This document shows, piece by piece, positions 3,518 through 35,183 of a stretch of 64,000 bases of DNA; position 1 is the first letter of the stretch, and each line of letters opens with the position of its first letter. A program made the position numbers and the translations under genes. A model generated the notes under the pieces. That model saw only the letters and a list, made by a program, of their open reading frames with translations. It did no database searches and was not told the DNA's origin. The stretch is from Chloroflexota bacterium (GTDB lineage Bacteria > Chloroflexota > Anaerolineae > Anaerolineales > E44-bin32). The stretch lies in NCBI GenBank assembly GCA_022561215.1, contig JADFRQ010000004.1, positions 20,820 to 84,819 on the forward strand, given 5' to 3'.

Positions 3518-3640
3518 GCAGCTATTGTAGCAGAGACAAACACAAGATTTGGACCGCAGAATCGCAAATTGACAAGCGTTCACTGTACGTGGTAAACTGC
3601 CCATCAATATGTAGGATGGGTATTAACTACCCTACCATTC

Positions 3641-3760
3641 ATTCATCAAGAGAGGTGGAGGGACCGGCCCTTTGAAGCCTCGGCAACCTCCAAAGGCGAT
3701 GCCTGAGGAAGGTGCCAACTCCGGCAGAAGTAGCGGAACTTACTTCTGGGAGATGAGGGT
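3641..3760 (+). promoter_or_regulatory. SAM-I (S-box) riboswitch aptamer controlling metE
   Basis: TTCATCAAGAGAGGTGGAGGGACCGGCCCTTTGAAGCCTCGGCAACC...GGTGCCAACTCCGGCAGAAG...GGGAGATGAGGG matches the S-box core (ATCAAGAG-GGnGGAGGGAC-GGCCC, GCAACC, GGTGCnAAnTCC-GCAG, AGATGAG closing P1). Confidence 0.92.
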
Positions 3761-3811: not shown

Positions 3812-3823
3812 CGAAGGGTGATT

Positions 3824-6043
3824 ATGAAAAAGACACTTACGCAGACTCTAGGGTACCCGCGCATTGGCATAGACCGGCAGCTTAAAAAGGCGCTCGAGTC
3901 GTACTGGAAGGGAAAGATTGAGGCGCAAAGCCTGCAACAGACTTTCCACGACGTTCAGGAGCAGGGGTGGCGAGAACAGTTGCAGGTTGGGATCGACCTG
4001 ATCGGTGTGGGGGATTCTACCCTCTACGACCATGTGCTGGATTGGACCCTACGCCTGGGTTTGATACCCGAACGATTCAGAGACATTGAAGGATTGGATC
4101 TCTATTTCGCGATGGCGCGCGGCGCGCAGGGTATCCCGCCCCTGAAACTGACCAAATGGTATGACACAAACTACCATTACTTGGTACCAGAAATCGATGA
4201 CGGCGTGCTTCCGGAGGCTGATTTCACCGAGTTTTTGGATCAGGTCGCGCGAGCCAAGGCCATTGTCGGCGATCGCGCCGTTCCGATTGTGCTTGGTCCC
4301 ATCACCTTGCTCAGCCTGGCGAACCTCGAGCAGCCAATGGCGGACGTACTCGAAAAAATCATACCGCTCTATGAGGACCTCCTTCAGGCGCTCGATGCGC
4401 AGGGGGTGACGGAGGTTCAGATCCATGAGCCGCGCCTCGTTCTCGATGAAACCAGCGATCTGAAACCTCTTTACAAAAGGAGTTTCGAGCGATTGGCGAA
4501 AGCCGGCCCACCCATTAACCTCGTGACCTTCTTCGACGACCTGGGCGAGGCCTACCCCTGGGTGGTCGAATTGCCGGTGTCGGCCATCACGCTCGATTTT
4601 ACGCGCGGCGACAATTTCGCTCTCGTTCAGAAGTACGGCCTTCCCCAGGGAAAAACGCTTGGTGTTGGGATCGTTGATGGCCGCAATGTCTGGCGGACCC
4701 GGGCCGAGCAGACTCGCGAGGTGCTCGACGGGCTTGGGGAAATCGAAGACCTGCGGGTAAGCGCCTCCTGCTCATTGCAATTCGTGCCCTACGTCGCCGC
4801 GCGTGAAGATCACATGCCCCAACAACTGCAAGGTGTCCTGGCATTCGCCAATGAGAAGCTTGCCGAAATCGTTGCGCTGGGCACCGGCTCCACCGAGGAC
4901 GGCCTGGAACAGGCCTGGGCTGACTACCGCGAGTTTGCAACTGGAGATTCAGAGACCAGAGCGCGTCTCGAGCAACTGCGATCCGATTCCTTCGCCCGCA
5001 AAACACCTTACGAAGAACGGCGGGCAAAGCAGATCGAGCTGCCACCCTTCCCACTAACGACCATCGGTTCCTTCCCGCAAACTGCGGAGGTACGCCGCTT
5101 GCGAGGTCGATTCAAACGCAAAGAAATCAGCGAGGCTGAGTACCAGGCGGGTGTGGATGCCTGGATCGCATACAGCATCGGAGCACAGGAAGCGCTAGGG
5201 ATGGATGTGTTGGTGCACGGTGAATTCGAACGATCCGACATGGTCGAATACTTCGCGGAGAAGATGAACGGCTTTGCGCTTACGCGGTTCGGCTGGGTCC
5301 AGAGCTACGGCAATCGCTATGTCCGACCACCGATTATCTGGGGAGACGTGCGCCGTACCTCAGCGATGACGGTGCGCGAGTTCAAAAAAGCTCAATCATT
5401 TACCGAGAAGCCGGTAAAGGGAATGCTCACCGGGCCGGTCACCATTTTAAACTGGTCATACTCTCGCAGTGATATCCCGCGGGAGGAAGTGGCATTTCAG
5501 ATAGCGTTGGCGCTGCGAGACGAAATTGTAGATTTGGAAGCCGCCGGTGCCAGCGTGATTCAGGTCGATGAACCAGCTCTACGAGAAGGACTGCCACTAA
5601 AACGGGCGCGCTGGGAAGACTATTTGCGTTGGGCAGTGGACGCATTCCGACTAGCTACCGGCGGTGCGCGGGACGAAACGCAGGTTCACACGCACATGTG
5701 TTACGCTGAATTTGGCGATATTTACCCGGCGATCGATCGCTTGAATGCCGACGTCATCTCGATCGAAAACGCGCGCAGCGGGGACCAGACGCTGCGCGAA
5801 CTGGCCCAGTACGGGTATGGCAGGGAGCTCGGTCCGGGGGTCTACGATGTCCACAGCGCCAACATTCCCGACGTTGAGCACATCAAGACCAGATTGCGCG
5901 CCTATGCCAAACACCTGCGGCCAGAGCAGATCTGGGTCAATCCGGATTGCGGATTGAAGACTCGCAATTGGGATGAGGTGCTTGCTTCACTTGGCAATAT
6001 CGCGGAAGCGGTACGCGCAATCAGAGAGGAAATCGAGGCCTAG
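3824..6043 (+). CDS. metE: Cobalamin-independent methionine synthase (5-methyltetrahydropteroyltriglutamate-homocysteine S-methyltransferase)
   Basis: Full-length MetE-like sequence (TLGYPRIG..., TTIGSFPQT, Zn-ligand region HTHMCY, NPDCGLKTR). GAAGGG RBS sits 5 nt before ATG 3824. The ORF track starts at GTG 3818. Confidence 0.95.
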   Translation: MKKTLTQTLGYPRIGIDRQLKKALESYWKGKIEAQSLQQTFHDVQEQGWREQLQVGIDLIGVGDSTLYDHVLDWTLRLGLIPERFRDIEGLDLYFAMARGAQGIPPLKLTKWYDTNYHYLVPEIDDGVLPEADFTEFLDQVARAKAIVGDRAVPIVLGPITLLSLANLEQPMADVLEKIIPLYEDLLQALDAQGVTEVQIHEPRLVLDETSDLKPLYKRSFERLAKAGPPINLVTFFDDLGEAYPWVVELPVSAITLDFTRGDNFALVQKYGLPQGKTLGVGIVDGRNVWRTRAEQTREVLDGLGEIEDLRVSASCSLQFVPYVAAREDHMPQQLQGVLAFANEKLAEIVALGTGSTEDGLEQAWADYREFATGDSETRARLEQLRSDSFARKTPYEERRAKQIELPPFPLTTIGSFPQTAEVRRLRGRFKRKEISEAEYQAGVDAWIAYSIGAQEALGMDVLVHGEFERSDMVEYFAEKMNGFALTRFGWVQSYGNRYVRPPIIWGDVRRTSAMTVREFKKAQSFTEKPVKGMLTGPVTILNWSYSRSDIPREEVAFQIALALRDEIVDLEAAGASVIQVDEPALREGLPLKRARWEDYLRWAVDAFRLATGGARDETQVHTHMCYAEFGDIYPAIDRLNADVISIENARSGDQTLRELAQYGYGRELGPGVYDVHSANIPDVEHIKTRLRAYAKHLRPEQIWVNPDCGLKTRNWDEVLASLGNIAEAVRAIREEIEA

Positions 6044-6402: not shown

Positions 6403-8319
6403 ATGAAAGAAAATAATTCTAGGACGACTATTTTCCAGGAATGGATGGAAAGCGAAAAGCCCATCCTTGCTGATGGCGCTATGGGAACAATGCTGCATTC
6501 AAAAGGGATCAGCATCGAATCCTGTTTTGATGAACTCAATCTGACCAACCCCGCCGTGGTATTGGAAATTCATCAGGCGTATGTTAATGCGGGAGTGCAG
6601 ATCATCGAAACCAATTCCTTTGGCGCCAATCGTTACAAACTTTCGGAATATCGGCTGGATGATCAATTACGTGCGATCAACATTGCGGCAGTTCAGCTCG
6701 CCAAGGAAGCAGCAAGTGCCGCGCCGCACAGTGTGTTGGTTGCGGGGAGTGTGGGTCCATTAGGCGTTCGCCTTGCTCCACTTGGCCGTATCAGGGAATC
6801 GGAGGCATTTGCTGCGTTTCAAGAACAAATTGATGCCCTTGTGAGCGCAGATGTCGATCTTATCATTATCGAGACCCAGAATGATCTGCAGGAGTCAATT
6901 CAAGCTGTGCGCGCGGCGCGATCGATCACGGACCGGCCGGTGATCGCAACGATGACGTTCACACGCGACGACCGCACGTTGCTTGGCGACACACCGGAGC
7001 ACGTTGCCACCAAACTATATGAAAGCGGCGCTGATGTAATTGGCGCCAATTGCTCCGAGGGACCGGCTCAATTGCTGCGCATCATCCGAAAAATGAAACA
7101 CACCGTCCCGCAGGCAGTTTTTTCCGTCATGCCCAATGCGGGATGGCCGGAAAGGGTTTTTGGCAGAATAATCTATCCTGCAACGCCAGATTATTTTTCC
7201 GAATACGCCCAGGCATTTCAGCAGGCCGGGGCCAAGATCATCGGTGGATGCTGTGGAACAACGCCAGAGCACAGCGCGGCGATGCGGGCAAGCCTCGATA
7301 ACCCTGAGCAAACATTCGCCATTCTGAGTGCAGTTATTTCATCTGAAAATGACACGCCTTTTGAAAGCACCGATAAGCAACCAACCAAACTCGCCAAAAA
7401 ACTTGATGATGGCCACTTTGTGGTTACGGTTGAAATGCATCCACCACGTGGTTTCTCGACCTATAAAATGATCGCCGGAGCTGAGCTGCTCTTGGATTCT
7501 GGCGCAGATGCAATAAATCTTGCAGATAGCCCAATGGCGCGCATGCGTATGAGCCCTTGGGCAGCGTGTCAATTAATCCAAAATGAGGTCGGGATTGAAA
7601 CCGTTCTTCATTTTCCAACTCGAGGCAGGAATATCCTGCGCGTGCAGGGGGATCTATTGGCGTCGCATGCCATAGGCGTGCGCAATGTATTTGTTGTGAT
7701 GGGCGATCCCACCGCTATTGGGGATTATCCGGAAGCAATGGACAACTACGATCTTGTCCCTTCGGGGCTGATTAAGCTTATCAGCCAGGGTTTTAATGCG
7801 GGCGTTGATCACACGGGAGCACAAATTGGAGGGGAGACATCGTTTTTTGTCGGATGTGCTTTAAATCTTGGGGCCAGGAATCTGAGAAATGAAATACGAG
7901 TGCTGCACAATAAAATCGAAGCCGGCGCGAATTTCGCACTCACGCAACCTGTTTTCGAACCCACAATCGTCGAGCAATTTTTGCAATCCTATGCGGCAAC
8001 ATACGGAACCCTCGAACTTCCGCTGTTATTAGGTATGCTGCCGATCCATAATGCAAAACACGCTACATTTCTCAACAATGAGGTCCCGGGAATCGATATC
8101 CCACAGAAAGCCATTCAAAGAATTTCGGACGCAGGGGAAAAGAGCCGCGAGGAAGGCATACGGATGGCGATCGAGCTTTTTTATTCGGTAAGAAAGCTTG
8201 TTCAAGGAGTCTATCTCATTCCAGCCTTCGGGCGCTACAACGTCGTTGCAGAACTTATCGAGAATATTCGTGCAGATGAAGTTGTACCCGTTCTCAATGA
8301 GGGTGCCTCCGTCGAATAA
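6403..8319 (+). CDS. Bifunctional homocysteine S-methyltransferase / 5,10-methylenetetrahydrofolate reductase (YitJ-like)
   Basis: The N-terminal half has Hcy-binding domain motifs (ILADGAMGTML, ETNSFGAN, GGCCGTTPEH). The C-terminal half is MTHFR-like (VTVEMHPPRG..., FALTQPVF). Confidence 0.9.
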   Translation: MKENNSRTTIFQEWMESEKPILADGAMGTMLHSKGISIESCFDELNLTNPAVVLEIHQAYVNAGVQIIETNSFGANRYKLSEYRLDDQLRAINIAAVQLAKEAASAAPHSVLVAGSVGPLGVRLAPLGRIRESEAFAAFQEQIDALVSADVDLIIIETQNDLQESIQAVRAARSITDRPVIATMTFTRDDRTLLGDTPEHVATKLYESGADVIGANCSEGPAQLLRIIRKMKHTVPQAVFSVMPNAGWPERVFGRIIYPATPDYFSEYAQAFQQAGAKIIGGCCGTTPEHSAAMRASLDNPEQTFAILSAVISSENDTPFESTDKQPTKLAKKLDDGHFVVTVEMHPPRGFSTYKMIAGAELLLDSGADAINLADSPMARMRMSPWAACQLIQNEVGIETVLHFPTRGRNILRVQGDLLASHAIGVRNVFVVMGDPTAIGDYPEAMDNYDLVPSGLIKLISQGFNAGVDHTGAQIGGETSFFVGCALNLGARNLRNEIRVLHNKIEAGANFALTQPVFEPTIVEQFLQSYAATYGTLELPLLLGMLPIHNAKHATFLNNEVPGIDIPQKAIQRISDAGEKSREEGIRMAIELFYSVRKLVQGVYLIPAFGRYNVVAELIENIRADEVVPVLNEGASVE

Positions 8320-8695: not shown

Positions 8696-9031
8696 ATGAC
8701 GGAACTCGCCGACCAGGAATTCAACTTGCCCGTTGAAAAAGGAGTTTCTCCTTTAGCCGGGGATGCCCTGCGCACCATACACGATCGCCTGGGCAACAAT
8801 TGGCAGGTCGTTGACGAGACTTATTTGGAGAAAGAGTTTTCCTTTAAAGATTTTCAAAGTGCCTTGGATTTCGTCAACAAAGTTGGCGAACTCGCCGAAC
8901 AGGCGGATCATCATCCCGAGCTCTCCCTCACCTGGGGTCGCGCAACCATTCGCATCTCGACGCACAGCATTGGAGGTCTTTCGGAGGCCGATTTTATCTT
9001 TGCAGCGCGTTCTGAGCGTTTCAACAATTAA
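8696..9031 (+). CDS. 4a-hydroxytetrahydrobiopterin (pterin-4-alpha-carbinolamine) dehydratase family protein
   Basis: 111 aa with the PCD core (FKDFQSALDFVNKVGELAEQADHHPEL...W...V.I...TH). GAGGTG RBS. Confidence 0.85.
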   Translation: MTELADQEFNLPVEKGVSPLAGDALRTIHDRLGNNWQVVDETYLEKEFSFKDFQSALDFVNKVGELAEQADHHPELSLTWGRATIRISTHSIGGLSEADFIFAARSERFNN

Positions 9032-9064: not shown

Positions 9065-9092
9065 TTGACACATCTCGATCTGCACCTAGAAT
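9065..9092 (+). promoter_or_regulatory. Sigma-70-type promoter of the metG leader
   Basis: TTGACA (9065-9070), a 16-nt spacer, then TAGAAT (9087-9092). Confidence 0.5.
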
Positions 9093-9098
9093 AGGAAC

Positions 9099-9234
9099 AT
9101 GGCGGATCTACTGAACCTGAATCATTCGGAGAGTCTGATGGCCATGCCTCCAATCCATGTCCTGGACGGTCGAGGCTGATATTGTTTGCAAGACCATGAA
9201 CAATCCATGAGCCAGCCTCACGCTGGCTTTTTTC
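9099..9234 (+). promoter_or_regulatory. Candidate transcription-attenuation leader (or small RNA) upstream of metG
   Basis: A 26-codon ORF starts at the predicted transcription start (ATG 9099, stop 9177-9179; MADLLNLNHSESLMAMPPIHVLDGRG). Alternative pairings are GCCTC 9146-9150 with GAGGC 9172-9176, GAGGCTG 9172-9178 with CAGCCTC 9213-9219, and the terminator GCCAGC/GCTGGC. Confidence 0.4.
9209..9234 (+). terminator. Intrinsic terminator within the metG leader
   Basis: GAGCCAGC-ctcac-GCTGGCTT is followed by TTTTTC. It sits 128 nt upstream of the metG ATG. Confidence 0.65.
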
Positions 9235-9361
9235 ATTATCTGGTTCGGGTCGCGATAGAATTCTCAATACGTCCGGAAACCGAAGCGAGTAAATCTTCCT
9301 AACACATGGCAAAATTACGGCCCGTTTTTTTGATATATTTTTTGGATTCCACGAGGGAAAA

Positions 9362-11128
9362 ATGTCTGAACTGATCCATGTATCTGTTGCCTGGCCCTAT
9401 GCCAATGGGGATATGCATATTGGTCATCTCGCAGGGGCTTATTTACCTGCAGATATCTTTGCGCGCTACCATCGATTACGTGGCAATCGCGTACTCATGG
9501 TTTCGGGATCGGATTCGCATGGAACGCCGATCACGGTCGAGGCTGACCAAAGCGGCCGAAGCCCGCGAGAAGTCTTCGAGTATTTCCATGCTCGTTTTCT
9601 TGAAGCCCAACTAGCAATGGGCATTAGTTATGACCTTTTTACGCATACGGACACCGAAAACCACCACCGTATCGCCCAGGATTTTTTCCTCCGGCTGCTG
9701 GAGGGAAAATTCCTTTATCAACAAAAGCAGCACCAGCTTTTTTCAGAAGCGGAGCAGCGCTTCCTTCCTGATCGTTACGTTGAAGGGACTTGTCCGATAT
9801 GCGGGTATTTGGAAGCGCGCGGCGATCAATGCGATAACTGTGGGAATTTGCTCGACGCACTGGATCTGATCAACCCGCGCAGCAAGATCGACGGCAGCAC
9901 CCCCATTATTCGAGAGACGGAACATTTCTTCCTGGATCTGCCCGCATTCACGGAGAAGTTGCAAGCCTACCTCGAAGAAGGTGTTGATCGCTGGCGGCCG
10001 AATGTCTACAAATTTTCGAAGAACTTTATCGATGGAGGCCTCAAAGGACGTCCTGTCACACGCGATATTTCCTGGGGAATCCCTGTGCCACTCGAGGGGT
10101 GGGAGTCAAAGCGACTCTACGTTTGGTTTGAGGCCGTGATGGGATACTTCAGCGCCTCGATTGAATGGGCGAAAAACAGCGGACAACCCGAGGCATGGAA
10201 GGAGTGGTGGTACGATCCGACAGCAAAAATATACAACTTCATTGGCAAGGATAACATCCCCTTCCACACGATCATTTGGCAGGCCGAGTTATTGGGCGTG
10301 AACCGCATCTACGAGACCGATACGGAAAAAACCCTGAATTTGCCCTACGATGTCCCGGCAAATGAGTTTATGACCCTGGAGGGCAAGGCGCTTAGCAAGA
10401 GTCGTAATTGGGCGGTGTGGCTGCCGGATCTTCTTAATCGTTACGATCCTGACGCTATTCGCTACTACGTCACCACCGCTTTGCCCGAGACGCGCGATAG
10501 TGATTTTTCTTGGTCGGATTTCCTTAATCGCAATAACAATGAATTGGTTGCTGCATGGGGCAACCTCGCCAACCGCGTTTTGTCGTTTGCCTATAAACAT
10601 TGGGACGGGCATATTCCTGAACCGGGGGAGTTAGCAGCTCAAGATCGAGAGCTTCTTGATGCGGTGGAAGCAGGTTTCGATCAGGTCGGAGAAAAAATCG
10701 AAGGGGTAAAAATCCGCTCGGCACTCACGGAGACCATGGCTCTGGCACGGCTGGTGAATGGATATCTTGATCGCGCCCCCTGGTTCCGTGTGATCGAAGA
10801 GGATAAAGCCGCAGCAGCAACCACCGTCTATACTGCGCTACGGGCGATTGACAATTTGAAAATCTTGTTCGCCCCCTTCCTACCTTTTAGTTCAGAACGA
10901 TTACACGCAAATTTGGGTTATGAGCAGCCGCTTTTTGGCAAACTGGCGATTCACACTATTGAAGAAGAAAATCGGGTGCATGATGTGCTCGCCTATGATG
11001 CGGATGGCGGCAATGGACGATGGCAGGTAAGTCAACTGCAACCTGGCGGCGTGCTCCTGCCACCAACCCCGCTCTTTAAGAAATTAGATAAGAGCATCAT
11101 TGAAGAAGAGCGAATAAAACTAGGCTAA
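9362..11128 (+). CDS. metG: Methionine-tRNA ligase
   Basis: Class I HIGH motif (DMHIGHLAG), zinc knuckle CPICG...CDNCG, and a KMSKS-type loop (KALSKSRNW). Confidence 0.95.
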   Translation: MSELIHVSVAWPYANGDMHIGHLAGAYLPADIFARYHRLRGNRVLMVSGSDSHGTPITVEADQSGRSPREVFEYFHARFLEAQLAMGISYDLFTHTDTENHHRIAQDFFLRLLEGKFLYQQKQHQLFSEAEQRFLPDRYVEGTCPICGYLEARGDQCDNCGNLLDALDLINPRSKIDGSTPIIRETEHFFLDLPAFTEKLQAYLEEGVDRWRPNVYKFSKNFIDGGLKGRPVTRDISWGIPVPLEGWESKRLYVWFEAVMGYFSASIEWAKNSGQPEAWKEWWYDPTAKIYNFIGKDNIPFHTIIWQAELLGVNRIYETDTEKTLNLPYDVPANEFMTLEGKALSKSRNWAVWLPDLLNRYDPDAIRYYVTTALPETRDSDFSWSDFLNRNNNELVAAWGNLANRVLSFAYKHWDGHIPEPGELAAQDRELLDAVEAGFDQVGEKIEGVKIRSALTETMALARLVNGYLDRAPWFRVIEEDKAAAATTVYTALRAIDNLKILFAPFLPFSSERLHANLGYEQPLFGKLAIHTIEEENRVHDVLAYDADGGNGRWQVSQLQPGGVLLPPTPLFKKLDKSIIEEERIKLG

Positions 11129-25467: not shown

Positions 25468-25752
25468 ATTAAAAAAATACCGTCCCACTAAGGGACGAGA
25501 TAAGTAAACCCGCGGTACCACCCTTTTTGGCCACTAAGAGCCCACTCTGCACCAACGGCTTTGGAAAAAGCCATGGATTCCTCTTCGATAACGGTGAGGC
25601 TCCGGCCCGAACTACTAACCCATCAATGGGAATTCCCCCGGGCAGCTCCGCAGGGAACTTCACCAGGCTTCCTTCGAGCGAGGGTTTCAGTCATTGCCCT
25701 CGCCTCCCTTGCGAATTTCGCCTGGCTACTTTCCTCCATCATAGCCGATTGC
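25468..25752 (-). promoter_or_regulatory. T-box riboswitch leader of pheS-pheT
   Basis: The minus strand reads AAAAAGGGTGGTACCGCGGG (T-box core at 25511-25523). Stem I elements are upstream (TGATGGAGGAAAGTA, AGGGAG, GGTGAAG). A candidate UUC (Phe) specifier lies at 25655-25657 and a terminator hairpin lies downstream. Confidence 0.85.
25471..25500 (-). terminator. T-box terminator hairpin
   Basis: The minus strand reads CGTCCC-ttagt-GGGACG followed by GTATTTTTTT. Confidence 0.6.
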
Positions 25753-34163: not shown

Positions 34164-35183
34164 CTAATAGCCTCGCTCAGCAATGAAACGGTTTAAGAGC
34201 GGCTGATCTGCTAAATAGCGCTGCATGTTTTCAGCAAAAAGCTCGATCGCCATTTCGTTATAGCGTGCAGAACTACCGGCGACATGGGGTGAAAGAATTA
34301 CGTTTCCCATCTCCCACAGAGGACTGCTCTCGGGTAGAGGTTCAACCGGATAAACATCTAAGGCAGCACCGGCAATGCGCTTGTCGCGCAGCGCGTCTAC
34401 CAGAGCCCCATGATCCACAATGCCGCCGCGTGATAGATCAATTAGAAAGCTGGAGGGCTTCATCCTCTCAAAAATTTTTTCGTCGACAGTTCCACGCGTC
34501 TCACTGGTTAATGGGATGGTGATAATCAGAAAATCACATTCGGCCGCCATGGAGGCCAGCGCCTGTGGTGGGTACAAACGACGCAGCAGGCTCGAGTCCG
34601 CGTCGCCAAGGTCATCAAATTGAAAGCCCGGGTCTTCTAATTTTTTCAAATCCCGTTTTGTTGCCAGCACCTCTGCCCCAAAAGAACGACAAATACGGGC
34701 GATCTGCCTTCCAATGCTCCCATAACCGACGATTCCTACGGTGCTGCCCCGTAATTGGACGGGTTTAAAACGCTCAAAGCGATCTTCCGCCCAGAGTTTC
34801 GCCGATTTATCCTCCATCATTAAGGGCAACCGTCGGCCCAGGCTGAGCATCATCATGACGGCGAATTCTGTCATGCCGGAGGCAGCAACACCGCTTAATG
34901 TTGTGACTCGAACTTCTGATTGCAGAAGGGGGTGATCGGCGAGATGATCCACGCCAGCAAAGTGGACTTGGACCCATTTCAGATTTGGGGTATCCTCGGG
35001 ATCCGGCAAAACACTCGCGGTGTAAAGCACTTCCACTTCTGCTAATAAATCCTCAGAAAAATCTTCTTCCGAGCGCACCGTATCTACCACCAATTTAAGT
35101 CGAGGGGATAGCGCCTTAATACGTTCGAGTAACTCTTCTTGAAAAGCAATTGTCATCAATACAAGGATGTCAGCCATTGGCAC
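34164..35183 (-). CDS. D-isomer-specific 2-hydroxyacid dehydrogenase family protein
   Basis: NAD-binding VGIVGYGSIGRQIARI, plus the catalytic region RGGIVD...ALDVYPVEPL...SPHVAG. Confidence 0.85.
   Translation of the reverse strand: MPMADILVLMTIAFQEELLERIKALSPRLKLVVDTVRSEEDFSEDLLAEVEVLYTASVLPDPEDTPNLKWVQVHFAGVDHLADHPLLQSEVRVTTLSGVAASGMTEFAVMMMLSLGRRLPLMMEDKSAKLWAEDRFERFKPVQLRGSTVGIVGYGSIGRQIARICRSFGAEVLATKRDLKKLEDPGFQFDDLGDADSSLLRRLYPPQALASMAAECDFLIITIPLTSETRGTVDEKIFERMKPSSFLIDLSRGGIVDHGALVDALRDKRIAGAALDVYPVEPLPESSPLWEMGNVILSPHVAGSSARYNEMAIELFAENMQRYLADQPLLNRFIAERGY

Follow-up and report, generated by a model that had tools for sequence, protein, structure and literature searches.

Upstream of metG, the gene for methionyl-tRNA synthetase (MetRS) in a 64,000-nucleotide (nt) stretch of a Chloroflexota genome of the order Anaerolineales (assembly GCA_022561215.1, contig JADFRQ010000004.1; the whole stretch is hereafter the window, in whose numbering positions are given), lies a short unit at 9065-9233 that is probably a ribosome-mediated leader-peptide transcription attenuator, through which metG would be tuned to the supply of charged tRNA-Met. 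A first-pass annotation, made from the letters of the window, had proposed a methionine (Met)-sensing attenuator of metG that is not a T-box, and this reading is now supported by an open reading frame (ORF) with clustered Met codons that is conserved in relatives, its leaderless start, the intrinsic terminator that follows it, covariation between the two strands of the predicted antiterminator and the match of the window leader to a covariance model of related leaders. What was directly observed, namely the parts themselves, their conservation, the specific enrichment in Met codons, the leaderless start in frame with them and the covariation, is laid out below before the mechanism that these observations suggest.

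All the features listed in the first-pass annotation are present where it had placed them, on the forward strand. A -35 hexamer TTGACA (9065-9070) and a -10 hexamer TAGAAT (9087-9092), separated by a 16-nt spacer, form an 11/12 match to a sigma-70 promoter, which is the top promoter-like site between 8000 and 11500 and the sole one of such quality. The -10 hexamer ends 6 nt before the ATG at 9099, which opens a leader ORF (9099-9179) of 26 codons plus a TGA stop (9177-9179) encoding MADLLNLNHSESLMAMPPIHVLDGRG, a peptide that gave no Pfam match. Codons 14 and 16 of this ORF constitute the Met cluster ATG-GCC-ATG (9138-9146, with the ATGs at 9138-9140 and 9144-9146). Three segments could then engage in alternative pairings. 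Segment 1 (GCCTC, 9146-9150), of doubtful functional status, is able to pair with 9172-9176, while segment 2 (GAGGCTG, 9172-9178), which shares bases with the stop codon, would form the 5' strand of the antiterminator. Segment 3 (CAGCCTC, 9213-9219) provides the upper 5' arm and the loop of the terminator and has two alternative partners, segment 2 or the terminator 3' arm. The intrinsic terminator (9209-9233) consists of an 8-base-pair (bp) stem, GAGCCAGC/GCTGGCTT, with the loop CTCAC (hairpin 9209-9229) and of six consecutive T (9228-9233), of which the first two double as closing bases of the stem. The terminator has a predicted energy of -12.6 kcal/mol; it lies 29 nt past the stop codon and 132 nt upstream of metG and is not a structure over the metG Shine-Dalgarno sequence. 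The repeat CAATCCATG occurs at 9151-9159 and 9201-9209 (three copies in 64 kb against 1.09 expected), its first copy following GCCTC of segment 1 and its second preceding AGCCAGCCTC of segment 3. Both copies could lengthen a pairing with TGGA at 9164-9167, and the repeat is not conserved in relatives.

The most compelling evidence came from these relatives, which were fetched by MetRS protein similarity (80 genome and 80 metagenome loci from Anaerolineae and other Chloroflexota, at 54-80% amino acid (aa) identity) and yielded 158 metG loci for comparison. Searches of them with the window leader by blastn and nhmmer returned weak terminator matches only, and homology emerged on reading the upstream regions, in which a common layout of promoter, short ORF with clustered ATGs, stop codon, intrinsic terminator and metG can be recognized. 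A strict pipeline, asking for two or more internal ATGs in frame within a 7-codon stretch and for a hairpin with a T run at most 110 nt beyond the stop codon, all upstream of metG, was positive at 82/158 loci; a few of these are false calls, and about 80 carry the design. Conservation of the Met-codon mini-ORF, which the first-pass annotation had named as a check of its proposal, is thus widespread upstream of metG. Among 75 family members, the cluster holds two Met codons at 33 loci, three at 31, four at 10 and five at one, so the earlier worry that the window ORF has 'only two Met codons' is no weakness (the Escherichia coli trpL leader also works with two Trp codons). The leader peptides have a median length of 28 aa, with Met making up 11% of their residues when the start codon is left aside, as exemplified by MLKYRANSMPMRMPIVTDDRRRLCRA (L068), MYTSCYERAMMMSGLPWHAGEEELSLR (L027), ...LMLMSMMMEINPRAWAAARR (L080) and ...MIMRMPMSGRV... 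(L075), and their sequences are unconserved except for the Met cluster and the stretches constrained at the RNA level. Pro shows no notable preference for the position after Met, following 11% of cluster Met codons against 7.4% overall. Met-cluster leader ORFs with family-type terminators are also found 0.5-1 kb upstream of metG (L025 3354-3458, L135 441-524 and L110 438-542), where another gene may lie between the leader and metG.

That the ATGs are read as codons was established by a test blind to ORFs. An intrinsic terminator is found 15-260 nt upstream of metG in 113/153 loci, and in the 130 nt preceding the strongest terminator at each of these 113 loci every codon was scored for occurring twice at a distance of 3 or 6 nt. 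ATG came out as the top clustered codon among the 64, being positive at 82/113 loci where dinucleotide shuffles gave 15.3 +/- 3.2 (z = 21), and the next ones, GAT, CAT and TGA (z = 4-6; GAT 6.3), are by-products of ATGATG and CATG. Spacings of 3, 6, 9 and 12 nt between ATGs occur in 47, 109, 31 and 35 cases, as opposed to 2-7 cases each for spacings of 4, 5, 7, 8, 10 and 11 nt; multiples of three thus prevail. In a background control, in which the ORF and terminator pipeline was run over 2.18 Mb on both strands, 74 of the 121 matches fell within 300 nt upstream of metG, and the remainder were mostly inside long ORFs with weak hairpins.

The leaderless start claimed in the first-pass annotation also finds support in the family. 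A sigma-70-type promoter (at least 9/12) is present upstream in 43/75 leaders, the same number in which a TTGAC-type -35 box is placed as in the window. At 41 of these 43 promoter-bearing loci, reading from the first ATG downstream of the -10 box leads in frame and without a stop codon into the Met cluster. This ATG is separated from the -10 hexamer by 6-10 nt at 31/43 loci, 13 of which show the 6-nt distance of the window and 12 a distance of 7 nt; a minority of family leaders have a longer 5' leader. Such a distance between -10 hexamer and ATG implies that the transcript is leaderless and that a leaderless mini-ORF is a conserved property of the family. At seven loci (L017, L018, L023, L027, L029, L033 and L052), a sigma-70-type gene (C-terminus ...RDYL*) stops ~10-45 nt before the leader ATG and no promoter is recognizable; the leader may there be translated from a read-through transcript instead of a leaderless one.

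Family membership of the window leader was assessed with a covariance model, R1, built from 28 leaders of the subfamily designated type A, with the window left out. Across the 64 kb, the sole significant match is 9138-9233 on the forward strand (27.3 bits, E = 1.5e-5), covering the full length of the model; a weak second match (34827-34856, reverse strand) was dismissed as spurious, being inside a 339-aa ORF. Type A has a terminator core GCCAGCC...GCTGGC that is invariant in 29 type-A leaders, and the terminator is the only consensus structure that RNAalifold returned for the type-A alignment. In the closest relatives of the window leader (L125, L081-L086 and L001-L003), a long-range helix, P1 (CUGCCGNGG/CCNCGGCAG; also CTGCCGNGG/CCNCGGCAG), which has moderate support from pair counts in type A, encloses a hairpin, P2 (CCGATGG...CCATCGG), whose loop bears a CGAGG block. 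The window copy is a divergent member of the family. In type-A leaders such as L096 (1336-1442) and L097 (1339-1448), the P2 loop reads GGAGG or CGAGG, which is Shine-Dalgarno-like, and the terminator loop CCUCC or CCUCG, which is anti-Shine-Dalgarno-like, and P1 (CUGCCGUGG/CCACGGCAG) begins 6-9 nt after the Met codons.

The pairing between segments 2 and 3, which competes with the terminator, was examined across the family. In the window, the 2:3 duplex (9172-9178/9213-9219) has 7 bp and a predicted energy of -14.3 kcal/mol. When the stretch from the last Met codon to the terminator was paired, for each leader, with terminator 5' arms and loops, its own terminator was preferred over unrelated ones (-17.6 vs -13.6 kcal/mol, Wilcoxon p = 9e-11). 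At the 34 loci with clean duplexes, the median length is 9 bp, spanning essentially the entire terminator 5' arm, and segment 2 starts a median of 18.5 nt past the last Met codon and ends a median of 14.5 nt before the stop codon; with a median of 23 nt from stop codon to terminator, this geometry fits a ribosome footprint. Compensatory changes, another check named in the first-pass annotation, were seen in type A as well as in types B and C, two further subfamilies. For the latter, 34 leaders were aligned with MAFFT: a 10-bp 2:3 helix has 86% of its cells paired, a figure that falls to 32-40% if its partner strand is shifted by 1-3 columns, and contains 35 double-change cells, a number reached by 0/500 shuffles; one of its pairs is A-U in 17 leaders and C-G in 14. 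In type A, to which the window leader belongs, the pairing partners are an in-ORF block (C/G)GAGG(C/T) and the terminator apex (G/A)CCUC(G). More than 80% of the sequences retain the five core pairs, double-change cells number 14 where 6.0 +/- 2.0 are expected, and compensatory cases include CAAGGCU/AGCCUUG in L081, as well as ACGAGG/CCUCGU in L083 versus UCGAGG/CCUCGA in L125. The window duplex GAGGCUG/CAGCCUC is the same type-A pairing with two window-specific pairs added.

Of the alternative hairpins originally proposed, the 2:3 pairing, which covaries, and the 3:4 terminator, which is conserved, thus both stand, and it is the 1:2 hairpin that does not rise above shuffled sequences. GCCTC and GAGGC are present in the window at 9146-9176, the hairpin being predicted at -10.0 kcal/mol. 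Segment 2 nevertheless pairs with the sequence preceding it no better than with shuffled versions of that sequence: the window value is 0.76 against 0.66 in shuffles, 35% of which are equal or better, and for the family the corresponding values are 0.62 and 0.60 (p = 0.44), revealing no conserved segment 1. Not every known attenuator has a segment 1.

Taken together, these parts can be assembled into a scheme in which we infer the stalling of the ribosome, its timing relative to the polymerase and the regulatory outcome. Transcription would start at or next to A9099, so that the mRNA begins with the leader AUG, and a ribosome loading on this 5'-terminal AUG would translate the 26 codons while the polymerase heads for the terminator at 9209-9233. 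When Met-tRNA(Met) is ample, the ribosome would clear the Met codons at 9138-9146 and reach segment 2 and the overlapping stop codon; segment 2 would then be covered or kept apart from segment 3, the terminator would close and transcription would stop at the T run, leaving a ~135-nt RNA. When Met-tRNA(Met) is scarce, whether methionine or MetRS is limiting, the ribosome would wait at codon 14 or 16. As is known from ribosome footprinting, the footprint ends ~12 nt past the first base of the A-site codon, and the edge of the stalled one would accordingly lie at ~9150 for the first Met codon or ~9156 for the second, leaving segment 2 free. Free segment 2 would capture segment 3 as it emerges, which would delay closure of the terminator and allow the polymerase to enter metG. 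The 1:2 hairpin is not relied on in this scheme because no segment 1 is conserved in the family.

Several observations weigh against this interpretation. The fold of the 138-nt leader (9099-9236) is no more stable than that of its shuffles (z = -0.55), and extending it to 9099-9375 reveals no extra stability either (z = +0.71); the above-chance standing of the window leader rests on its relatives and not on the window sequence alone. P1 and P2 are both absent from the window leader, unlike its closest relatives, and its antiterminator is short, the 7 bp extending no further than the loop and upper arm of the terminator. Equilibrium folding with the ribosome represented as a mask barely separates the regulatory states, the terminator 5' arm being sequestered to 0.69 with a ribosome stalled at the Met codons, 0.64 with no ribosome and 0.64 with a ribosome at the stop codon, and in the window the terminator fold has an advantage of 6.8 kcal/mol over the most stable fold with 2:3. 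If the window transcript ends before the terminator 3' arm, 2:3 is already predicted to form with no ribosome present. Since equilibrium favours the terminator fold, any switch must be kinetic and steric, as in classical attenuators. Promoter-like hexamers between the terminator and metG could supply metG with a promoter of its own. Finally, MetRS also charges the initiator tRNA, and a shortage of Met-tRNA could thus cut translation of the leader itself, with an unpredictable outcome.

In a variant of the attenuator, possible although we regard it with some doubt, a leaderless three-segment device is ON by default, and termination requires a translating ribosome to arrive at segment 2 and the stop codon. 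With no segment 1 conserved, leaders of the family may be ON when untranslated, which would suit a gene whose product charges the initiator tRNA too, and the variant would account both for the missing segment 1 and for the conserved leaderless start. If the default were indeed ON, a shortage of elongator Met-tRNA, stalling the ribosome at an internal AUG, and a shortage of initiator fMet-tRNA, preventing 70S ribosomes from loading, would both raise metG transcription, and one small ORF would monitor both products of MetRS.

Whichever way its default is set, an attenuator could have decayed in this particular genome. The window copy would then be a relic of the family, showing constitutive termination or read-through, and the features that distance it from its relatives can be read in this light: P1 and P2 are gone, the antiterminator has 7 bp and the cluster two Met codons, the R1 score of 27.3 bits is modest, and the 2:3 extension pairs (alignment columns 43-130 and 44-129) are kept in just 12/29 and 2/29 sequences. 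Decay is nonetheless unlikely, since the core parts (promoter, open ORF, Met-x-Met motif, GAGGC, stop codon, 8-bp stem and six T) are intact and well spaced, two Met codons are the commonest state in the family (33/75) and types B and C likewise do without P1 or P2.

The first-pass annotation had itself offered an alternative, an independent ~135-nt small RNA (sRNA), to which a Met-rich micro-protein may be added, either of them a small gene with its own promoter and terminator, metG being expressed from a separate promoter. A unit with a strong promoter and a strong terminator is indeed present, the terminator fold is the equilibrium ground state at nearly all loci, and -10-like or extended -10 motifs occur between terminator and metG in 19-34/75 loci, the window with its TAGAAT at 9256-9261 included; motifs of the Met-x-Met type, moreover, bind metals in some proteins. 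Yet such a gene would have no reason to be linked to metG, directly upstream of which 74/121 pipeline matches are found, and its peptide is unconserved outside the Met cluster and the RNA-constrained stretches. An sRNA, in addition, has no need for ATGs spaced in multiples of three or for a first ATG in frame (41/43), and covariation of a segment inside the ORF with a terminator arm is the signature of an antiterminator. An independent small gene is therefore improbable, and attenuation of metG by the leader ORF is preferred.

That the leader is not a T-box was borne out when the window and related loci were searched against Rfam, with gathering as well as permissive thresholds. Neither T-box (RF00230) nor any other family matches the leader between 8950 and 9450 even at E <= 10, although the same library recovered the T-box of the window at 25488-25751, and the leaders of eight related loci gave no T-box or riboswitch match at E <= 1. 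T-boxes were also sought as a substitute in relatives without the Met leader, and none was found. A leader switched by some factor, be it an uncharged tRNA as in T-boxes, MetRS itself or a metabolite, with an incidental ORF, is most improbable: a T-box and an S-adenosylmethionine (SAM) riboswitch are present in the same window, the conserved P1 and P2 of type A have no explained role and some synthetases do bind their own mRNA for control (e.g. E. coli thrS), but, apart from the negative Rfam results, there is no RNAalifold consensus beyond the terminator, and what unites the subfamilies, which lack a common fold, is the Met-codon ORF with its reading frame and start.

The 128-nt spacer between terminator and metG (9234-9361, forward strand) carries a Shine-Dalgarno sequence, GAGGG (9353-9357), and -10-like hexamers including the TAGAAT at 9256-9261. 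Extended -10 motifs (TGCTACAAT, TGCTAAAAT and TGCTAGAAT) are found in this interval at 19/75 loci, against 6.5 expected, among them L003, L005, L008, L018, L023, L027, L046, L089, L090, L096-L098, L102 and L111. They lie 24-46 nt, and mostly 27-45 nt, before the metG ATG, which suggests that in many type-A relatives metG has an additional promoter past the attenuator, one that would be unregulated. The window spacer has a plain TAGAAT only, 100 nt before metG. The synthetase gene itself (9362-11128, forward strand) encodes a protein of 588 aa with the Pfam domain tRNA-synt_1g (E = 8e-144).

On its other side, the leader is preceded by a gene for pterin-4a-carbinolamine dehydratase (8696-9031). 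Further upstream, a SAM riboswitch (3640-3759, 83.8 bits) lies 58 nt before metE (3818-6043), which is followed by a gene encoding a fusion of homocysteine S-methyltransferase and MTHFR (6403-8319). If the attenuator reading holds, metG ends a methionine-metabolism neighbourhood in which the biosynthetic genes would be under SAM control and metG under that of a leader peptide. The T-box leader at 25488-25751, on the reverse strand (98.2 bits), indicates that the organism employs T-boxes for other genes, not for metG.

Several known systems offer instructive parallels, the synthetase attenuators of E. coli pheST and of Streptomyces being the closest in function. In the E. coli pheST (pheM) attenuator, as proposed for metG, a leader ORF rich in cognate codons precedes an aminoacyl-tRNA synthetase gene, antiterminator and terminator are mutually exclusive and tRNA charging is sensed through the position of a ribosome. 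Classical attenuators have also been predicted upstream of trpS and leuS in Streptomyces (PMC1262725), again with a cognate-codon leader ORF, a synthetase gene and competing hairpins. The metG leader differs from all of these in that it would sense Met, resides in Anaerolineae, has its ORF at the 5' end of the transcript without a Shine-Dalgarno sequence and lacks a conserved segment 1. With the E. coli trp attenuator (trpL), it shares two regulatory codons, a stop codon shortly before the 3:4 terminator and a segment 3 common to 2:3 and the terminator. However, trpL has a defined 1:2 pause and anti-antiterminator hairpin, so that its default when untranslated is termination, whereas 1:2 is unsupported at metG, and trpL regulates a biosynthetic operon rather than a synthetase.

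As for the leaderless start, a parallel is found in the mycobacterial leaderless short ORFs encoding polycysteine (Canestrari et al., bioRxiv 10.1101/834739): a ribosome stalled on them is reported to open a structure that hides a downstream ribosome-binding site. They too are leaderless short ORFs with a run of one codon, acting as stalling sensors for downstream genes, but by translational unmasking and not by a terminator with a T run, in response to Cys and not Met, and for genes of cysteine metabolism and not for a synthetase. The Met T-boxes of Firmicutes (metS/metG) occupy the same niche, terminator read-through before a MetRS gene at low tRNA-Met charging, but bind uncharged tRNA directly without translation, and no T-box core is present in the window leader.

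The amino acids with known classical attenuators are Trp, His, Phe, Leu, Thr and Ile/Val, predicted or related ones exist for Cys, and we know of none for Met, the control of which has so far been ascribed to T-boxes, SAM riboswitches and protein repressors. The literature searched contained no Met-codon attenuator or metG leader peptide; an earlier prediction is possible, since Lopatovskaya et al. 2010 (PMID 20198868) was not covered. The available evidence supports the view that the metG leader extends the ribosome-mediated attenuators to a new amino acid, to a new lineage and to leaderless translation.

If this view is correct, a Met-codon attenuator preceding the MetRS gene, and spread over Anaerolineae, would fill the missing Met case. 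It would also tie leaderless translation to transcription attenuation outside Actinobacteria and raise the question of how a Met sensor copes when its own start codon also needs Met-tRNA. For the family as a whole, the model provides a recognizable element for annotating metagenome-assembled genomes and, for the organism studied here, a single genome window would combine three mechanisms, the SAM riboswitch at metE and the leader-peptide attenuator at metG being joined by a T-box.

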